DNA from: a virus
Strand: one strand, 5' to 3'
Length of the DNA stretch: 64,000 nt
Virus record (IMG/VR): IMGVR_UViG_3300035698_022389
Location: 32,001-96,000 of that record
The notes under the pieces were generated by a model that saw nothing but the letters and a program-made list of their open reading frames with translations, ran no database searches and was not told the DNA's origin. How positions within the stretch are numbered: the stretch's first letter is position 1; the number at the start of each line of letters is the position of its first letter. The position numbers were made by a program, and so were the translations under genes. Positions 956-32,767 of the stretch are shown here, one piece after another.

Positions 956-1333
956 ATGACTGATATGCGGATAGATTGTAAAGTGGATGTACCTGTAGAG
1001 CTGCAGGGTGGTAATTATGCGGACGCCTTCCGAATTATCTCCTTAAAAGGTGATGTTGAGTGTGTCTTGGATTTCCTGTCGCTGTCACAATGCCGTACTC
1101 AAGCCTCTGTAGTAGCTAGAATTCGTGTGGAAAAGAAGTTCCTAACTTCTATCAGGGATCGGCTGGAAGCAACACTGGAAGAAATACAAGAAATACAAGA
1201 TATCAGTTATGGCAACCTGACATCTGAACAGGTTGATTCTATTTGGGATCAATCCGAGGTTTTTGATTCCGAAATTGAAGGTGAAGGGGCTATACCATTA
1301 ATATGGTTCATATTCCCAGAAAAGGTGGGTTAA
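956..1333 (+). CDS. Hypothetical protein (weak DUF3467-like N-terminus)
   Basis: 125-aa ORF abutting its neighbours; NYADAF...VLDF pattern; acidic C-terminus. Confidence 0.45.
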   Translation: MTDMRIDCKVDVPVELQGGNYADAFRIISLKGDVECVLDFLSLSQCRTQASVVARIRVEKKFLTSIRDRLEATLEEIQEIQDISYGNLTSEQVDSIWDQSEVFDSEIEGEGAIPLIWFIFPEKVG

Positions 1334-1334
1334 A

Positions 1335-1835
1335 ATGGCAGTAGCCTTTATTCCGGGAGAAACAATATCAAGAGGAGACTTAGACATCTTCTTGCAGAAT
1401 AGTTTAGGGAATCCAGCAAATGCTGCAGAGATTTACTACACTCTTTACTATGTAGCTCCAGGTCCTCCTGAATCCGAAGTACAGGTTGGCCAACCTCAAC
1501 GAATTCCCGTAAATCCTGCCGTCGGGGAGTATTACGCTTCTCTTATGGTTCCCCAAGGTTCAACCCCAGGAACATATAGAATTCGATGGACATTCAGAGA
1601 ACTTATCAATTCACCCCAACAGCAAGTCGTTCAGGAATTTGCTATCGTGACAGCAGCTGGCTCCTTATTGGTTCCTGGATATGATCAGGCTCAGACAGCA
1701 ATGATGAGAAGCCTTCGGATGCTTTTAAGAGATCAGTGTGTTGGTGGTGAAGTTACAGTAGAAGTGGATGCCGATGGTGAATTGATGGTTGTGTCCATGA
1801 AAGATTTATGGGAGGCTTTGAAAGATGAAGTCTAA
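1335..1835 (+). CDS. Putative neck/head-tail adaptor, fragment 1 (134-aa N-extein plus 32-aa split intein IntN-1)
   Basis: Ends ...LLRDQ|CVGGEVTVEVDADGELMVVSMKDLWEALKDEV*, an intein block A-like segment starting with Cys135 (TGT 1737-1739). Confidence 0.8.
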   Translation: MAVAFIPGETISRGDLDIFLQNSLGNPANAAEIYYTLYYVAPGPPESEVQVGQPQRIPVNPAVGEYYASLMVPQGSTPGTYRIRWTFRELINSPQQQVVQEFAIVTAAGSLLVPGYDQAQTAMMRSLRMLLRDQCVGGEVTVEVDADGELMVVSMKDLWEALKDEV

Positions 1836-1914
1836 CCAGCCACATCAAAAATTATTACCTTTATTAAAGAAATATGAAGTTTTTCCATATGGACAGAAAA
1901 AGATAGGTTGAAAA

Positions 1915-2679
1915 ATGTTAAGTGTGCATGATAAACTGAGAAATGCTTTTCGTGTAGGGAAGTTAAAAACGAGATCAGTATCACCTGAAGGAAAAATGGA
2001 ATGGAAATGTGTAACAGATGTCCATAGGGCTGAGGTTCCTTGGGAAGAAATTCGGAGGGTAGATACTAAATATGGTCATGCTTATTTAACTAAAGGGCAT
2101 AGAGTTTTTGTATCTCCTGTAATAAAAAAGAATGCTGGGGATTTAGTAGAGAATGATAGTGTTCTTGGCATAGATGCTTCAGATACTGTTTTTTATCCTA
2201 GTTTAACATCTATAGCTGTTAAACCCTCTCGTAAATATATGTATGATTTAACTGTTGCTGACTGGCATAATTTTGTTTTGTTTGATTCACGGATGGTTAT
2301 CAGTAATTGCCCTGACAAATTTTATCATTTCAGGCCACCTGAGTACGAAGGGGATATCGGACAGTATAATCGAATATTTGGTCAGATATGGGAAGACGAG
2401 GAACTTTTGGAGTACCTGCTGAGGTCTTTGGATTGGTTCAACATGTTCCCCCCACTAACTCAGAAGATCAATACTTTGACCATTCTGCTTCAAGCCATGC
2501 CCGCATGGAGGACAGCCATCCTGTGGGGTGCTATTACTCATGCTTGTTTTGCTTTATCGATAAATTGGGTCGCGGACGAATTTTCTGTTCGTGGTGATCA
2601 GGAGGTAACTGTAGTAACTAAATCAGGTAAAGAGATTTCTTTATCGATTCAAGAATTGTATGAGATATGCAAGAACTAA
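1915..2679 (+). CDS. Putative neck/head-tail adaptor, fragment 2 (131-aa IntC-1, 92-aa middle extein, 31-aa IntN-2)
   Basis: Block B LTKGHRVF, block F YMYDLTVADWHNF, block G VISN|C (Asn131 at 2305-2307, Cys+1 at 2308-2310); ends ...WVADEF|SVRGDQEVTV...SIQELYEICKN* (Ser at 2584-2586). Confidence 0.85.
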   Translation: MLSVHDKLRNAFRVGKLKTRSVSPEGKMEWKCVTDVHRAEVPWEEIRRVDTKYGHAYLTKGHRVFVSPVIKKNAGDLVENDSVLGIDASDTVFYPSLTSIAVKPSRKYMYDLTVADWHNFVLFDSRMVISNCPDKFYHFRPPEYEGDIGQYNRIFGQIWEDEELLEYLLRSLDWFNMFPPLTQKINTLTILLQAMPAWRTAILWGAITHACFALSINWVADEFSVRGDQEVTVVTKSGKEISLSIQELYEICKN

Positions 2680-2767
2680 TTAGTAAACGACAATTTATGG
2701 TAGGCAAAAGGGACTTGAAAAAGACTCCAGATATTTGTGTAGCTAGGGTGCAGGAGGTATTATTACA

Positions 2768-3451
2768 ATGTTGAGAATAAAAGAACAATGTGAAATCAGA
2801 GAATCTTTTAAGGAGGGTACTTTACAGGTAAAAAGTGTTGACCCTGTTACAAAAGGTGTGGTATTACAGCCTATTATTGAGGTGTTAAAACATAAAACCC
2901 CTGATAAAGTTATGTTAGAAGTGGTTACCGATTGTGGGACGGTGGTTACAACACAAGATCATTCTTTGTTTAAATCTGATATGGTATCTGTTGAAGTTTC
3001 CAATTTAAAAGAAGATGATGAAATAGCCTGGGTGGATGGTATTTATAAACCCATGAAAGTCAGAAAGATCAATGTAGTCCCTAATGAAGTTTTTACTTAT
3101 GATTTAAGTGTCCCTCCTTTTCAGAATTTTACACTCTCTAATGGAGCTGTAGCACATAATTCATATAGCATAGGCGGGGTATCCTTGGATATTGAGAAAT
3201 CCTCAAAATACGAATCCTTGAAACAAAATGCTGAAGGTCAATTAGAGAAAGCAGCTGAAGCAAAACAACGAACTGTTAAATTTATCCGAGGGTTACAGCA
3301 GCCCAGATTCGGCCTCGGAGTAAGGAGCAGTTTTGGCCCACATGTAGGTAACGGCATACTTAGCCCTCGGAGTTTTATGGCTTGGGCTGTTGCTGTTTTA
3401 ACACCTGCATTAGTTTTTGTTAGTTCTGCCAACAGTCTAGGTTTGGTCTAG
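2768..3451 (+). CDS. Putative neck/head-tail adaptor, fragment 3 (131-aa IntC-2 plus 96-aa C-extein)
   Basis: Strong SD AGGAGGT; block B TTQDHSLF, block F TYDLSVPPFQNF, block G GAVAHN|S (Asn131 at 3158-3160); extein begins SYSIGGVSLDIEK, resembling the S-x-S-x-G-x-x-S motif of head-tail adaptors. Confidence 0.85.
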   Translation: MLRIKEQCEIRESFKEGTLQVKSVDPVTKGVVLQPIIEVLKHKTPDKVMLEVVTDCGTVVTTQDHSLFKSDMVSVEVSNLKEDDEIAWVDGIYKPMKVRKINVVPNEVFTYDLSVPPFQNFTLSNGAVAHNSYSIGGVSLDIEKSSKYESLKQNAEGQLEKAAEAKQRTVKFIRGLQQPRFGLGVRSSFGPHVGNGILSPRSFMAWAVAVLTPALVFVSSANSLGLV

Positions 3452-3535
3452 GTTTTCGGTAAAAAGTTAATTATTTTTTATTAGTGTAGTTTGAGGTTGC
3501 TTGGAGAGATTATAATCTAGTGGTGGAGGTTTAAT

Positions 3536-3961
3536 ATGAGTGTTTCTGTAGAAAGGTTAATTCATCGGTATATGCAAGCATTTGTGTCTAAACAATCCCC
3601 GAAGGCCGTTGTTTATATTAGTAAAGACTCTGTATATTTTCAGGGTGCCCTTCCTTGTGGGGTTATGGGGTCTATTAAAGATATGATGAAAACTCATAAG
3701 AAGGGGTTGGATTTGTGTAAACAGACGGTTTTAGCATTACGCAAGGCATTTCCAACATGTAAAGCATGGAAATTACCCACAAAAGATTTTGATTATCTTG
3801 CAGGGGAGACTTCAAGTAGACTTTTCCCTTTGTTTTTTTCAACAGGACAACCAGCTTCTTTAGGGGTGTTTCAATTTGAACTTATGGATGTAGATGAAGT
3901 TGAGGCCATCACTCTTAAAGTGATGAAACATTTGGGTTGGGAAATTAAAATAATGGAATAA
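3536..3961 (+). CDS. Hypothetical protein, first gene of the AT-rich accessory cluster
   Basis: 141 aa, SD GGAGGT; N-terminus VERLIHRYMQA; lacks the RKHLVP motif. Confidence 0.6.
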   Translation: MSVSVERLIHRYMQAFVSKQSPKAVVYISKDSVYFQGALPCGVMGSIKDMMKTHKKGLDLCKQTVLALRKAFPTCKAWKLPTKDFDYLAGETSSRLFPLFFSTGQPASLGVFQFELMDVDEVEAITLKVMKHLGWEIKIME

Positions 3962-4499: not shown

Positions 4500-5177
4500 A
4501 TGAAAAACTTTATCAGACATGCAACTTTGAGGGCATCCTCTAAAAAAGTTATTGATGCTTTTATCTTAAAGAAACCCCTTGAAAACCAATCTATGACTTC
4601 AACGGGGAAAGAACTCTCAAGTATTTCGATGGGTGGCCAACTACTTGCCAAATGGGTAGGCCGAAAAATAGCATTTGTAGGATTAGAGTCTTCTCGGACT
4701 GTATCCTCTATAGTTAGGTATCTTACGAAAAAGGCTGGTCACTCAATGGTGACTTTCGATTATGACCGAAAGGGTTTTAATCGGTCTATTCATTTTCAAA
4801 CGGGTGGGGATGTAAACGGTCCTCAGTATGATGGTTATGTTTATGCCAGGTTGCCTTGGCGGGATAACCAGTTTGTGGGCCAGTTAACTTGGACTGAGTA
4901 TCAGGATGAGTACAGTGTCCGAATGATTGAGGTTTTACCTGAATACCGAAGGACTGGTATTGGTAAAGCTCTGATGGAGTATTTTATGAAAGATCAAAAG
5001 ATTACTAAATCTGATATTAATACAGGGATGAGAACTCCTGATGGTTCTAAATTTTGGGATAAGTTATCCAAAGGGATGGAACACCCTGAGAATTTAAGAG
5101 CTAAAGTAATTAAGCTGGCTCACGAGAACCCTAAGTTACGAAAGCATTTAGTTCCTATTTTGAAAGAGGCTGAATAA
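4500..5177 (+). CDS. GNAT-family acetyltransferase domain protein with C-terminal RKHLVP motif
   Basis: GNAT motif A IEVLPEYRRTGIGKALME and downstream RTPDGSKFW; ends LRAKVIKLAHENPKLRKHLVPILKEAE. Confidence 0.7.
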   Translation: MKNFIRHATLRASSKKVIDAFILKKPLENQSMTSTGKELSSISMGGQLLAKWVGRKIAFVGLESSRTVSSIVRYLTKKAGHSMVTFDYDRKGFNRSIHFQTGGDVNGPQYDGYVYARLPWRDNQFVGQLTWTEYQDEYSVRMIEVLPEYRRTGIGKALMEYFMKDQKITKSDINTGMRTPDGSKFWDKLSKGMEHPENLRAKVIKLAHENPKLRKHLVPILKEAE

Positions 5178-5437
5178 TGGGAACTGGTAATAATAACAAC
5201 GATATAACATTTTTTGATTCTGGCCCAAACAAAACGAAATACATGCTAGCTACAGTAAATTCTACTATAAATAGCGATAAAGATACAAACAAGTATCCAC
5301 CGACTGAAAGACTAATAACGACTGAAACTATTGAAGTATATATTGGGGTTGGTGATCGTGCAGAATTTGTTACACATATTTTTGATGCAAAGAAGGCTGA
5401 AAACCAAAGGTTAAATAGAAAACTGAGTTCTTATTAG
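5177..5437 (+). CDS. Hypothetical protein
   Basis: 86-aa ORF coupled (TAATG) to the upstream gene; no recognisable motif. Confidence 0.45.
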   Translation: MGTGNNNNDITFFDSGPNKTKYMLATVNSTINSDKDTNKYPPTERLITTETIEVYIGVGDRAEFVTHIFDAKKAENQRLNRKLSSY

Positions 5438-6763
5438 GTGGAAAAGGGAAGGAAACCTTTCAAAATGTCTAAAGATTTATCAAAGTTAGTAAAGAAGTTA
5501 GCTTCTGATAATCCTGAACTAAGGAAGCATTTAGTACCCCTTCTGAAAGAAGCTGTTGTACCTATTAAACAAATGGCAAAAAAGGCTTCAATTAAAACAG
5601 TGGAGCAGTTTGGATTATTTAAAGTTTATGGGCCTTATACAGATATAGCTCCTTTGATTAAGTCTTTGAAGCAGTGGGGTTTTAGATATGAGCCTGTTCA
5701 TAAAGTTTGGGAGATGCCTTTAGAAAAGGTAACCCCAGCTTTACGTAAAAGATTGGATAAATTAATTGCAAAACAAACTCCTTGGGAGGATATTTTGCAA
5801 CAGGCTGTAACAAACGGTTGGGTTTTAAGTTTTGTTTATAACGAGGAATTGATTCAAGATGCTCGCAAATTAAAAGGGACTTGGGATAAAAAACATAAAT
5901 ATTGGGTATTCCCGACAGCAAGGGCTTATAAGGAGATGTCTGATATTGTTAAAGATAAAGAAGACATTTTGAATGAGATACTAAAAAAGAAAGAGGGTTA
6001 TCTGCAACAAAAAAAGGAGGCCCTGCGTAAGGGTTGGTTTGTACAGTTTGATTATGATACAGATTTGATAAAAGAAGCCAAATCTTTAAATGGCTTATGG
6101 GACACTAATCAGAAGGTATGGGTATTTCTTGATATTTCTGATTATAAGAAAATGAAACGTGCCATACATGAGGATGATGATAAAGATGTCCCCTCAAATG
6201 CTATTGTACGCAGTCAATCTAGTAAGAACAAGACTCCTCGTTTTCAAAAAGGAGATTCCTTTAGAGACCCTGAAAATCATAAGGTTTTAACAGTTTTCAA
6301 CATAATGTCCAAATACTATGCTGAGGATGGAAGGTCCTTTGGTTTGGGTATGGATAGAGGTTGGGCACATTCGTTTTATTGTAAACTGGCCGGAAAAAAA
6401 GGGGTGGCTGAAGTAGAATTACAAGAATTTAAAGAATTGTCTCGGCAGCAAATGGTTAAGGCATACCAGAATATGGTTAAGATGTTTAAGAAAAAAGGGA
6501 AATTCCCCAAACCTGGCTCAAAATTGATAACTTTACGTGGGAAAAAACATATGGAATCCGATACCTCCTCTATTCTTTATGGTGGCGGGCATTGGTTTGT
6601 GGTTGAGAGTGGTAAAATATGGTATGTAGAGAACAACGGGGCAGATGGTGATAATTGGGCTCATAACAATATTGCCACATCTGGTGCGGGGGCATTAGGG
6701 TGGTATCTCCCTTATTCTGAGGGGTTAGCTGAGGAGCTTAAAATTATGGATAAGAAACTTTGA
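5438..6763 (+). CDS. RKHLVP-motif protein with three HARP-like repeats
   Basis: Likely start ATG 5465; motif KKLASDNPELRKHLVPLLKEA; repeats FVYNEELIQDARKLKGTWDKKHKYWVF, FDYDTDLIKEAKSLNGLWDTNQKVWVF and a degenerate third copy. Confidence 0.65.
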   Translation: MEKGRKPFKMSKDLSKLVKKLASDNPELRKHLVPLLKEAVVPIKQMAKKASIKTVEQFGLFKVYGPYTDIAPLIKSLKQWGFRYEPVHKVWEMPLEKVTPALRKRLDKLIAKQTPWEDILQQAVTNGWVLSFVYNEELIQDARKLKGTWDKKHKYWVFPTARAYKEMSDIVKDKEDILNEILKKKEGYLQQKKEALRKGWFVQFDYDTDLIKEAKSLNGLWDTNQKVWVFLDISDYKKMKRAIHEDDDKDVPSNAIVRSQSSKNKTPRFQKGDSFRDPENHKVLTVFNIMSKYYAEDGRSFGLGMDRGWAHSFYCKLAGKKGVAEVELQEFKELSRQQMVKAYQNMVKMFKKKGKFPKPGSKLITLRGKKHMESDTSSILYGGGHWFVVESGKIWYVENNGADGDNWAHNNIATSGAGALGWYLPYSEGLAEELKIMDKKL

Positions 6764-13704: not shown

Positions 13705-14332
13705 AGCTCAGATTATTTGCACTTGCCCATCCATATGGATACAAGATTTGAACTTAAATATGAAACGTGGCCAGTCGGCAATGGTTTCAGAATCTAAAGC
13801 TAAGGCTTCAACGGATTTGGGTTTAGCACGTAGGAATGGTGGCGTTAGTATTACGTATGTACAACGATTTCAGGAACTTAAACCCCCTCAAGTAGAACCT
13901 GTGGTTCAGGTATCGAAGAAAGTACCCTTACCAACTCCTTTGCATCAACCTGAGTCTCCTGTCCTTCCTGCTGAAAGAGTCAGGGTGGAGAGAATGACCT
14001 TGGACGAGGATGCTTTGGTGGATAAACTGGCAGCCAAAATGAATTCATTACGAAGCAGTAACACCAATTCTTTAATAGATTCTTTGATAGGTGAAGTTCA
14101 GGCCATGAGGAAAGAGTTCTCAGAGGGTCAAAAGAACCATGGTCAGATTGTGAAAGAGGTTGTTCATTCTGAGGGTAGGGTAAAAGAAGATGTCCCTATG
14201 TTTATCCCTAAGACTATTATGGGGAAAAAAGCAGGGGATGTTAAGATAGAGATTGAAGAAACTACTTCAGAAAGCACTGTGGATGAGGCTTCGGAAGCTT
14301 TACGTGCTTTACGGAAAAAGGAGAAATCATGA
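13697..14332 (+). CDS. Hypothetical protein coupled to the actin-like ATPase
   Basis: Likely ATG 13697 (track start 13673); Pro-rich linker, coiled coil, C-terminal ASEALRALRKK helix; ATGA overlap with the next gene. Confidence 0.6.
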   Translation: MIEAQIICTCPSIWIQDLNLNMKRGQSAMVSESKAKASTDLGLARRNGGVSITYVQRFQELKPPQVEPVVQVSKKVPLPTPLHQPESPVLPAERVRVERMTLDEDALVDKLAAKMNSLRSSNTNSLIDSLIGEVQAMRKEFSEGQKNHGQIVKEVVHSEGRVKEDVPMFIPKTIMGKKAGDVKIEIEETTSESTVDEASEALRALRKKEKS

Positions 14333-15348
14333 CAGATGAAAAAACACCTGTGATTCCAGTACCTTTTGGCGTGGGGTGTGATATTGGGACTATGAATATT
14401 GTGTCTGCCCGTCGTGGAAAAGAAGGGATTACGACCAAACGTATGCGTGATGTCTTCATCGATTTGCCTATAACTGCCAAGAAGATGTTGAAATTGTCTT
14501 CTACCAGCTTTGTTGAACGAGAAGACGATGTTTTGATTCTTGGGGATGCTGCTTTGGAGACGGCTAATGTTTTTGGAACCCCTCCTCGACGCCCACTTTC
14601 GGATGGAATAATCTCGGCTAGTGAAATAGACAGCTTGGAAGTCCTTGGTATGCTTATCAAGAATGTGCTGGGTAAACCCAGGACTCCGAACGAGGCTTGT
14701 TATTTCTCTGTACCAGCAGAACCGATAGATAGGCCTGACAAGGACATAATTTACCATCGTGGAGTATTTGAACGAATTGTTGCTGAGTGTGGATATACTC
14801 CATATGCAGCCAATGAAGCTATGGGTATTGTGTATTCTGAAACAGCTAATGAAGGATTTTCTGGTGTAGGAATCTCTTTTGGTAGCGGCATGACGAACGT
14901 TGCCCTATCCATCAACACCATTGAAGGTCTGACGTTTTCCATTGCCCGTGGCGGCGACTGGATTGATGCAGGTGCTGCTAGTTCTGTCGGCCAGACTCAG
15001 GCACGTATATGTGCATTGAAAGAGAAGGGTTTTGATTTGATGAAGCCTGAAGGTCGGGAACAAGAAGCTCTGGCCTTCTATTATAAGTCGGCCATTGACT
15101 ATGCTCTGGATAACATTGAAGAACGTTTCAAGGCCATTCAAAATCAATTTGTTTTGGCTAATCCTGTCCCCCTCGTAGTGTCAGGTGGTACGAGTTTAGC
15201 AGGTGGGTTCATGGAGTTTTTCAAGTCTGTCTTTGAGAAACGGAAGAAGTTCCCTATCGAGATTTCCGAGATTCGACATGCTCAGGAACCCCTGAATGCC
15301 GTTGCTTACGGTTTGTTGATTCAAGCTATCCAAGAACACGAGGATTAG
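14329..15348 (+). CDS. Actin-like ATPase (MreB/ParM/FtsA superfamily)
   Basis: Phosphate-1 VGCDIGTMNIV, phosphate-2 GISFGSGMTNV, adenosine VVSGGTSLAGG, connect-2 EPLNAVAYGL. Confidence 0.85.
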   Translation: MTDEKTPVIPVPFGVGCDIGTMNIVSARRGKEGITTKRMRDVFIDLPITAKKMLKLSSTSFVEREDDVLILGDAALETANVFGTPPRRPLSDGIISASEIDSLEVLGMLIKNVLGKPRTPNEACYFSVPAEPIDRPDKDIIYHRGVFERIVAECGYTPYAANEAMGIVYSETANEGFSGVGISFGSGMTNVALSINTIEGLTFSIARGGDWIDAGAASSVGQTQARICALKEKGFDLMKPEGREQEALAFYYKSAIDYALDNIEERFKAIQNQFVLANPVPLVVSGGTSLAGGFMEFFKSVFEKRKKFPIEISEIRHAQEPLNAVAYGLLIQAIQEHED

Positions 15349-31603: not shown

Positions 31604-32767
31604 ATGGGAATGTTGCCGACGACAACTCCCGAGCAACGGGCAGCGTTCTATGAGGACGTTGAAGATTTCACCAGTGTGGGATTTATATCTCATTCATTGA
31701 GTCTTGCAGGTGCTCGTTTGTCATTTCGGTCTTTGTCTGCTGGAGATTTGTTTTTAATTAGAACCCATGGTGATGACGAGGATTGGCAGGCATGGATGGT
31801 AGCTTCTTCTATCTGGATGGTGGATGGTTTCAGCCTTCTGGGAGAAACTAATTCTCCATATCATATCCATAAAATGTTGAAAGACATACCTCGGTCAACA
31901 ATGGCTATTTTGTTCAGTATTGTTAAGGGGTTGTTTTCTCGGCAGGATCAAGCTATCGGAGCAGTTGAGGCATATTGTTATGAAAATGCTTCACGTTTTC
32001 GGTGGAAAGCCACTAAAGGATCCTCTATAGGGACTACTTCTGGGATTCAGGGCACCAGCAGGTTCGGGCTGAACTCTGTGATGCAGATGTGGCGGTTTTT
32101 TAATGAGGTTGAGGATAAACGGAGTTTTGATGAAGCTCAATGGGATGGTTTCAAGCTGTCTGCTTCAGCCTCGTCTCCTAAAGGGGTTGAGAAAATTGAT
32201 AAACATGATAGGAGTAGACGTGAACGAGAGGAAAATCGGCGACAGGATGTTCTTGACCGATTTTACTATATTAGAAAAGGAGTTTTGTCTTCAGAGTCGA
32301 AGCCAACAGACACTGAATCTATTGGCATTCGTGCCAAATCTTATGATGACTTGGAGGGTGAGATGCAACGTTGGGTTAGTGGGGATGAGGATTTCCATGA
32401 TAAGATTGTCAGTAGCTACAAGAATTCAATCACTTCTCGATATGATCGGGAACAAGATGACAGAGCAGCCCGACGAGAAATGTTGCAGAAAAAATACGAG
32501 GAAATGGAGTTGGATACGAAGCCCCAGCCTTTGGTTGGTTATACGTTGGACCAATTGGAGCATGTTGTGAAAAGTCGAAAGCCAGGTGTGGCTCATCTTT
32601 ATCATGATACTCAAGGAACTCAGGAGAAGTTATATCAACGTCATTTGAAATTAGCAGAAAAAGGGTTATTGGAAGCTGAAGATGGCCAGCTAAAAGCCCC
32701 AAATGTGAATCCTGAACTGATGGAGTTAATCACCAAACGTCAGGTTCCATATAAGTCAGAGGATTAA
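31604..32767 (+). CDS. Putative second tail assembly chaperone
   Basis: 387 aa directly upstream of the tape measure, in frame with the previous ORF after TAG-CCT. Confidence 0.5.
   Translation: MGMLPTTTPEQRAAFYEDVEDFTSVGFISHSLSLAGARLSFRSLSAGDLFLIRTHGDDEDWQAWMVASSIWMVDGFSLLGETNSPYHIHKMLKDIPRSTMAILFSIVKGLFSRQDQAIGAVEAYCYENASRFRWKATKGSSIGTTSGIQGTSRFGLNSVMQMWRFFNEVEDKRSFDEAQWDGFKLSASASSPKGVEKIDKHDRSRREREENRRQDVLDRFYYIRKGVLSSESKPTDTESIGIRAKSYDDLEGEMQRWVSGDEDFHDKIVSSYKNSITSRYDREQDDRAARREMLQKKYEEMELDTKPQPLVGYTLDQLEHVVKSRKPGVAHLYHDTQGTQEKLYQRHLKLAEKGLLEAEDGQLKAPNVNPELMELITKRQVPYKSED

Follow-up and report, generated by a model that had tools for sequence, protein, structure and literature searches.

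Three adjacent open reading frames (ORFs) in a stretch of viral DNA very probably encode the pieces of a single head-to-tail adaptor, or neck, protein of about 322 amino acids (aa). The gene is fractured by two split inteins, each broken by a nuclease gene that was later deleted, and its product would be restored by trans-splicing. The stretch, hereafter the window, comprises the whole 64,000 nucleotides (nt) analysed, i.e., positions 32,001 to 96,000 of the IMG/VR virus record IMGVR_UViG_3300035698_022389. The three ORFs are on the + strand of the window at 1335-3451, in three different frames (1335-1835, 1915-2679 and 2768-3451), with spacers of 79 nt between ORF1 and ORF2 (1836-1914) and of 88 nt between ORF2 and ORF3 (2680-2767). 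Cut at the predicted splice points, their translations give seven pieces: three exteins (E1, E2 and E3) and the N- and C-terminal parts of two inteins (IntN1, IntC1, IntN2 and IntC2). The exteins sum to 134 + 92 + 96 = 322 aa and are joined at LRDQ-CPDKFYHF and ADEF-SYSIGG.

ORF1 (166 aa), which has homologues of the same build, consists of the N-extein E1 (134 aa, 1335-1736) and of IntN1 (32 aa, 1737-1832), the short N-half of split intein 1, which begins with CVGGE (Cys1) and has a net charge of -7. ORF2 (254 aa) is the middle piece and has 29 diverged homologues of the same build. Its IntC1 (131 aa, 1915-2307) contains blocks B (TKGH), F (YDLTV) and G (..VISN) and is followed by Cys+1, its E2 (92 aa, 2308-2583) opens with the highly conserved CPDKFYHFRPPE loop, and its IntN2 (31 aa, 2584-2676), the short N-half of split intein 2, begins with SVRGD (Ser1). 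ORF3 (227 aa) joins IntC2 (131 aa, 2768-3160), with blocks B (TQDH), F (YDLSV) and G (..VAHN) followed by Ser+1, to the C-extein E3 (96 aa, 3161-3448). The ATG of ORF3 is preceded by an AGGAGG Shine-Dalgarno sequence contained in spacer 2, the start of ORF2 has a weak AGGT alone, and an in-frame stop lies directly 5' of the ORF2 ATG. This layout (three ORFs, frames, spacers, intein halves, motifs and extein sizes) had been described in the original prediction, made from the letters of the window, and proved accurate in every detail. Because the same layout, with invariant catalytic residues, recurs in dozens of diverged homologues, the pattern of three ORFs with intein halves is far beyond chance. 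The claim that the gene comes in three pieces with two atypically split inteins is supported.

We propose that one transcript yields three precursors, a single transcript being expected because the spacers lack a terminator-like site; scans for promoters and terminators found nothing above chance. No Rfam family, hence no self-splicing intron, was matched at E <= 1 over 1000-3800. The acidic IntN1 would dock into IntC1 and IntN2 into IntC2, each pair completing a HINT fold. Site 1 would use Cys1/Cys+1 chemistry and site 2 Ser1/Ser+1, the terminal Asn cyclising at each, so that E1, E2 and E3 would be ligated in this order and four intein fragments released. Comparison with relatives shows the history: a free-standing homing endonuclease gene of the PD-(D/E)xK type, TnsA-like in intein 1 and of the Vsr/DUF559 kind in intein 2, inserted in the loop of each intein and broke it, and both genes were later deleted in the phage of the window.

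Insertion sites and intein identity

The gene has many homologues, with 613 found using the C-extein and 274 cluster representatives using the N-extein, and many of them are about 300-326 aa long and show no intein signal. The joined exteins of the window align without gaps at both junctions with seven of these intein-free homologues, which read ..LRDQ-N-PDKFYHF.. at site 1 and ..ADEF-D-YSIGG.. at site 2. The +1 position is Asn in 164 of 175 intein-free sequences at site 1, and Asp in 181 of 209 at site 2. The inteins thus sit exactly at the predicted sites, with Cys and Ser at +1 replacing Asn and Asp. This alignment supports the splice junctions originally proposed, and the contiguous homologue of about 320 aa expected to span both of them is found. 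Ser replaces Asp at the site-2 +1 position (..EF-S-YSIGG..) in 16 intein-free alleles, which may be footprints of precise intein loss. Both inteins lie in the most conserved loops of the protein (PDKFYHFRPPE and YSIGG), and such loops are the usual choice of homing elements. In one homologue (P0205), a Ser1 IntN lies six residues beyond site 1, after ..NPDRNY. This is a third site, so that more than one position of the conserved loop is targeted.

Both sites carry the residues of class-1 inteins: Cys or Ser at residue 1, a TxxH motif in block B, a terminal Asn, and Cys or Ser at +1. The Pfam profile Intein_splicing (PF14890) matches ORF3 with E 1.7e-8 and 34.9 bits; its two matching stretches sum to 36.8 bits, above the 35.8-bit cut-off. 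Both IntC pieces have weak sequence matches in the PDB to solved inteins (TFIIB, CDC21, RadA and DnaE), those of IntC2 to the TFIIB and CDC21 inteins having E values of 3e-4 to 2e-3. The atypical TerL inteins (AceL, GOS and Cat) are absent from these PDB matches at E <= 1. The catalytic residues are strongly conserved. Cys1 of intein 1 occurs in 41 of 41 relatives, and no relative lacks the terminal Asn. Among the 29 middle pieces, which are 41-60% identical to that of the window, T59, H62 and N131 of IntC1 and S224, the Ser1 of intein 2, are invariant; so are T62, D64, H65, H130 and N131 of IntC2 among 27 C pieces in the same range of identity. We also computed the ratio of non-synonymous to synonymous substitution rates (dN/dS) against the closest relative, the IMG/VR contig L082. 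The values, which are rough because dS is near saturation against this relative, are 0.07 for IntN1, 0.27 for IntC1, 0.07 for IntN2, 0.15 for IntC2 and 0.06-0.08 for E1 and E3, that of E2 not being computable.

The two inteins of the window are 41% identical to each other in IntN and 28% in IntC. In a tree of 193 IntC segments, those of site 1 form one clade and those of site 2 another, so that inteins 1 and 2 are related (paralogous) but distinct lineages.

The spacers and the endonuclease genes of relatives

We sorted 373 proteins and 158 viral loci using profiles of the seven pieces. The intein-free form makes up the majority of the family. The other states are a contiguous mini-intein at either site or at both, a split at one site only (1 or 2), a split site 1 with a contiguous site 2, and splits at both sites, i.e., the three-piece form. 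The window shares this last form with five other IMG/VR contigs (L082, L084, L114, L092 and L094), and the middle piece IntC1-E2-IntN2 occurs in at least 24 protein-database clusters. Where the intein is contiguous, 4-10 residues separate the N part (residues 1-28/30) from the C part, which begins at its residue 5-8. The split therefore falls in a loop that directly follows block A, an atypical position like that of the TerL inteins (PMC11766414). On the intein tree, many nodes of which have weak support, contiguous forms are mixed with split ones; parsimony requires at least 14 and at least 9 changes, and this distribution fits repeated gain and loss of a nuclease cassette.

Most split relatives have a gap of 800-1000 nt that holds an ORF of 290-350 aa on the same strand. 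The gap ORFs of site 1 match a TnsA-like endonuclease and those of site 2 match Vsr, DUF559 and REase_MTES_1575; these free-standing genes encode endonucleases of the PD-(D/E)xK type. L082, which is 81% identical to the window over ORF2, carries both nuclease genes. Positions 1004-1875 of the window align with 3279-4144 of L082 and positions 1879-2699 with 4965-5785. The window therefore lacks about 820 nt of the nuclease gene that L082 has at site 1. A mini-ORF of 28 codons (1825-1911), which runs from the end of ORF1 to 3 nt short of the ORF2 ATG, is identical at 13 of 19 positions to the first 19 residues of the L082 site-1 endonuclease (E 8e-8). Another of 35 codons (2667-2774), which overlaps the ORF3 ATG, matches residues 292-316, the last 25, of the L082 site-2 endonuclease (E 1e-6); it keeps the first few and the last ~25 codons of that gene. 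Judged from these alignments, both spacers are deletion scars of endonuclease genes, TnsA-like in spacer 1 and Vsr/DUF559-like in spacer 2. Through the stop, ribosome-binding site and start that they still provide, these scars keep the intein halves on separate chains. L114, L092, L093 and L105 each have a single short gap like those of the window.

Both mini-ORFs begin within the last part of the ORF ahead of them and end at the following ATG or just short of it, and the full nuclease ORFs of the relatives overlap both neighbours likewise. As a speculation, such overlaps could couple the translation of the pieces. IntC2 (2768-3160) is only 47% identical to its counterpart in L082 (6697-7089), the values being 81% for IntN2 and 83% for E3. 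This suggests that IntC2 is mosaic, with intein halves exchanged by recombination or homing.

The predicted spliced protein

The model of an intein-free homologue (predicted local distance difference test, pLDDT, of 73) has an N-terminal beta-sandwich and is otherwise helical. The beta-sandwich, which corresponds to residues 1 to ~105 of E1, resembles domains of the macroglobulin and immunoglobulin (Ig) type (Z 8-9.2), and the remainder of E1 is the first helix of the predicted adaptor domain. The alignment used (A1) includes some rows bearing IntC1, which bears on the N-terminal part of this model; for the adaptor fold we used a clean alignment of the domain alone (A5). We compared the resulting model of the helical part (pLDDT 65) with 48,161 solved chains (VIA). 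Among the first 27 structural matches, almost every one is a phage chain of the adaptor, connector or neck type (Z 9.5-6.3, 89-133 residues aligned). These Z values by themselves are in the grey zone of helical folds, but the enrichment is clear. The matches to the adaptor domain include Pa223 (9nwi_A, Z 9.5), cyanophage A4 (9k09_d, Z 9.4), SU10 (7z47_A, Z 8.9), T4 gp13/gp14 (9lu4_D, Z 8.7), the P1 connector (Z 8.4), the neck of phage 812 (Z 8.2), the Mu neck subunit (Z 7.3) and HK97 gp6 (3jvo_A, Z 5.9).

Other comparisons returned less. Foldseek gave no match in the PDB at E <= 0.001 for either model and, in BFVD, uncharacterised phage proteins alone, with low template-modelling (TM) scores. 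A profile of the extein family had no match among PDB sequences, the ESM Atlas gave unnamed viral clusters alone, and the exteins match no Pfam family. The three ORFs of the window are unmatched in PHROGs and have intein matches alone in Pfam, and most neighbouring genes are blank in both. Among 32 homologues, 14 are matched by phrog_17327 ('head-tail connector'), weakly (best E 4e-4). A homologue that is 27% identical, gp319 of Tunturiibacter phage Tunturi_5, is annotated as a head-tail connector, and its gene lies just ahead of the tail terminator and sheath genes. In the record of the window, the genes of the head protease and of the major head protein are ~12-17 kb upstream and a baseplate gene is downstream. 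The label of neck protein, already given in the original prediction, is thus reasonably supported by the fold matches of the models, the weak PHROG match and the position between head and baseplate genes.

The predicted protein shares with phage adaptors of the HK97 gp6/SPP1 gp15/T7 gp11/T4 gp13 type a helical core, a hairpin and a long C-terminal arm, the last two in E3, which consists of the SYSIGGVSL hairpin, a long helix, a conserved GLQQPRFGxGxRSxFGP arm and a variable hydrophobic tail. It differs from them by the added N-terminal Ig/macroglobulin-like domain and, in some members, by the hydrophobic C-terminal tail, and its sequence likeness to them goes no further than the weak PHROG match. 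The tail of E3 (3350-3448) has ~25 hydrophobic residues after a conserved ..SPRxF in some homologues and is missing from many others. A copy of the E1 beta-sandwich domain is encoded by a separate upstream ORF in L092, L094 and L096-L108, and up to 17 copies of the domain follow one another in a protein of 4,922 aa (P0194).

Proposed trans-splicing, its alternatives and known systems

Several points weigh against a trans-spliced adaptor. Splicing, which is most likely, is predicted from comparison with homologues. The match of PF14890 to ORF2 (E 6e-6, 26.6 bits) is under the 35.8-bit cut-off. IntC1 ends in Ser-Asn where inteins usually have His-Asn; Ser-Asn is the most frequent ending in the family, but it could slow splicing. 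The two inteins, being paralogous, could conceivably mispair, which includes cyclisation of the middle piece. The call of an adaptor comes from models of middling confidence (pLDDT 65-73), with Z scores in the grey zone of helical folds. Finally, the record of the window is a 132,879-bp IMG/VR virus contig rated 25% complete, i.e., it holds only about a quarter of the genome. The phage, an uncultured one from a salt lake, is therefore huge, and contigs of relatives reach 536 kb.

If splicing failed, or occurred at one site, the pieces might associate through their intein halves and form a non-covalent neck of two or three chains. We consider this improbable. The lack of a penultimate His in IntC1 (..SN) speaks for it, as does the observation that Ser1/Ser+1 inteins are often slow (PMC11766414, PMC12707363). 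Yet at 41-60% identity the homologues show little or no variation in Cys1 or Ser1, TxxH, the terminal Asn and the Cys or Ser at +1, which is hard to explain if these residues are unused, and the ~160 extra residues per site would need room in a tight 12-fold ring.

The trans-splicing pairs must not cross-react, because the middle piece has an IntC in front and an IntN behind, and mispairing would lead to its cyclisation or to the skipping of E2. Orthogonality of the two pairs is plausible given their sequence divergence. The charges of the first pair are opposite (-7 for IntN1, +4 for IntC1). A complex predicted from three chains (the tail of ORF1, ORF2 and the head of ORF3) scored 0.66, and a control in which chain 3 was replaced scored 0.73. 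A stronger version of the trans-splicing reading, which we regard as possible but doubtful, is that splicing proceeds in two obligate, ordered steps, that the inteins evolved mutual orthogonality, and that the arrangement was fixed, and possibly useful, after the nucleases were lost. The inteins would have to ignore each other, since the middle piece would otherwise cyclise itself. If true, engineered tandem trans-splicing would have an equivalent in nature, and an orthogonal pair of inteins with short IntN would become available, one of them without a catalytic cysteine.

The split might also be an adaptive control device, in which splicing times or meters the supply of adaptor in head completion. 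The original prediction had raised such a checkpoint of timing or stoichiometry, and the family gives it no support: the sites are hot spots of selfish elements, with empty, contiguous, split and nuclease-bearing homologues. The split does persist after nuclease loss, at both sites in the window and at single sites in L114, L092, L093 and L105, and is therefore not kept by homing alone; the mini-ORFs that bridge each stop to the next start could couple translation. However, most homologues have no intein, the interspersion of contiguous and split states on the intein tree is what is expected of a parasite that comes and goes, and a split intein cannot revert by the mere loss of its nuclease, so that persistence needs no benefit. 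Control by splicing is thus a very unlikely function of the locus. Since the spacers are nuclease scars and the sites are hot spots of selfish elements, a parasitic origin accounts for the layout without any adaptive role, and we think the best reading of the layout is that of a trace left by selfish elements which the phage tolerates, not that of a regulatory device.

A slightly less probable alternative still is that selfish elements have wrecked the gene at this locus, which is now decaying, and that a working adaptor gene lies in the remaining 75% of the genome. The incompleteness of the record and the decay of both endonuclease genes would agree with this. The three ORFs are intact and have start signals, and their dN/dS values of 0.06-0.27 argue against decay, as does the conservation of the same build in five other contigs, none of which has a second copy and one of which is 95% complete. 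In the window's own 133-kb record the gene has no second copy. The five other three-piece records, among them the one that is rated 95% complete and one that carries terminal repeats, show only E2 and E3 pieces and no intact copy.

Contigs of the Logan collection from four salt-lake metagenome runs, one of which may be the source of the window itself, cover positions 1200-3600 with 0 differences and 0 gaps, four contig records bridging spacer 1 and three bridging spacer 2; both spacers are thus bridged in independent assemblies. That sequencing or assembly errors broke two ordinary contiguous inteins, which do occur at both sites in relatives, is therefore refuted as far as contigs can show, the more so as the spacers exceed the linkers of contiguous inteins by 70-90 nt and are recognisable as remnants of nuclease genes, and an in-frame stop stands just ahead of the ORF2 ATG.

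The arrangement has known relatives. Fractured genes, in which a free-standing homing endonuclease gene lies between the halves of a split intein, were described together with the Vsr-like nuclease family, and included one intein broken 'at an unusual point' with a C part of 122 residues (Dassa, London, Stoddard, Schueler-Furman and Pietrokovski 2009, PMC2677866). The window likewise has adjacent ORFs of one conserved gene on the same strand with split-intein halves at the breaks, and most of its relatives have an endonuclease in the gap, including Vsr-like ones. The window has scars only and, as the free-standing nuclease is gone, is a derivative of this arrangement and not a full member. It also differs by having two breaks, and thus three pieces, in a single gene of 322 aa, by the TnsA-like nuclease of site 1, and by a host that is predicted to be a virion structural protein, whereas the hosts of fractured genes are enzymes of DNA metabolism or packaging.

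The atypical split inteins AceL-TerL (IntN 25/IntC 104, Cys1/Cys+1) and GOS-TerL (37/115, Ser1/Cys+1), of which Cat is the consensus (PMC11766414), share with those of the window a short IntN with block A, a long IntC with blocks B, F and G, and a phage origin; AceL also shares the saline habitat. In contrast to them, the window has longer IntC pieces (131 aa), no sequence relationship to them detected in the PDB sequence search, a Ser1/Ser+1 intein without catalytic cysteine, and two paralogous pairs in one gene. Tandem trans-splicing with two orthogonal split inteins has been engineered (Humberg et al. 2025, PMC12707363). It has in common with the window the assembly of three segments, with a middle one that has IntC at its N-terminus and IntN at its C-terminus, but that system is man-made while the layout of the window is natural and recurrent.

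The class-1 mini-inteins, the atypical split site and the fractured-gene layout are thus known parts, and what differs is the presence of two split inteins in a small structural gene, the Ser1/Ser+1 chemistry with an IntN of 31 aa, and nucleases decayed to scars. No natural three-piece gene with two split inteins and no intein in a head-tail protein was found described in the literature that could be searched, most subscription journals being outside the search. The original claim that no such case had been described holds to that extent, with the qualification that the locus is a doubled, nuclease-less version of the fractured genes of 2009 and is common in metagenomes.

If the proposed trans-splicing takes place, natural split inteins would extend from enzymes of replication and packaging to a structural neck protein, and nature would routinely build one small protein from three chains. 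The nuclease-bearing relatives and the scars of the window record contiguous, nuclease-fractured and stand-alone split stages at single-nucleotide resolution, and these three stages directly support the proposed origin of split inteins. The two pairs and their natural variants are candidate orthogonal tools for assembling proteins from three segments, such pairs being scarce (PMC12707363). As regards annotation, some core virion genes of huge phages may be hidden in fragmented ORFs labelled 'hypothetical'.

Two other genes of the record are of a different nature. An ORF of 339 aa in the window (14329-15348, + strand) matches the Pfam family Volactin (PF25216, E 1.3e-72), an actin-like protein. 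About 8-10.5 kb upstream of the window start and right after the gene of the major head protein, an ORF of 883 aa (G000:C1:21449-24097; L161:9449-12097) has matches to LAGLIDADG homing endonucleases, to methyltransferase-like domains and to DNA-binding domains, and is possibly another mobile element in the head module.

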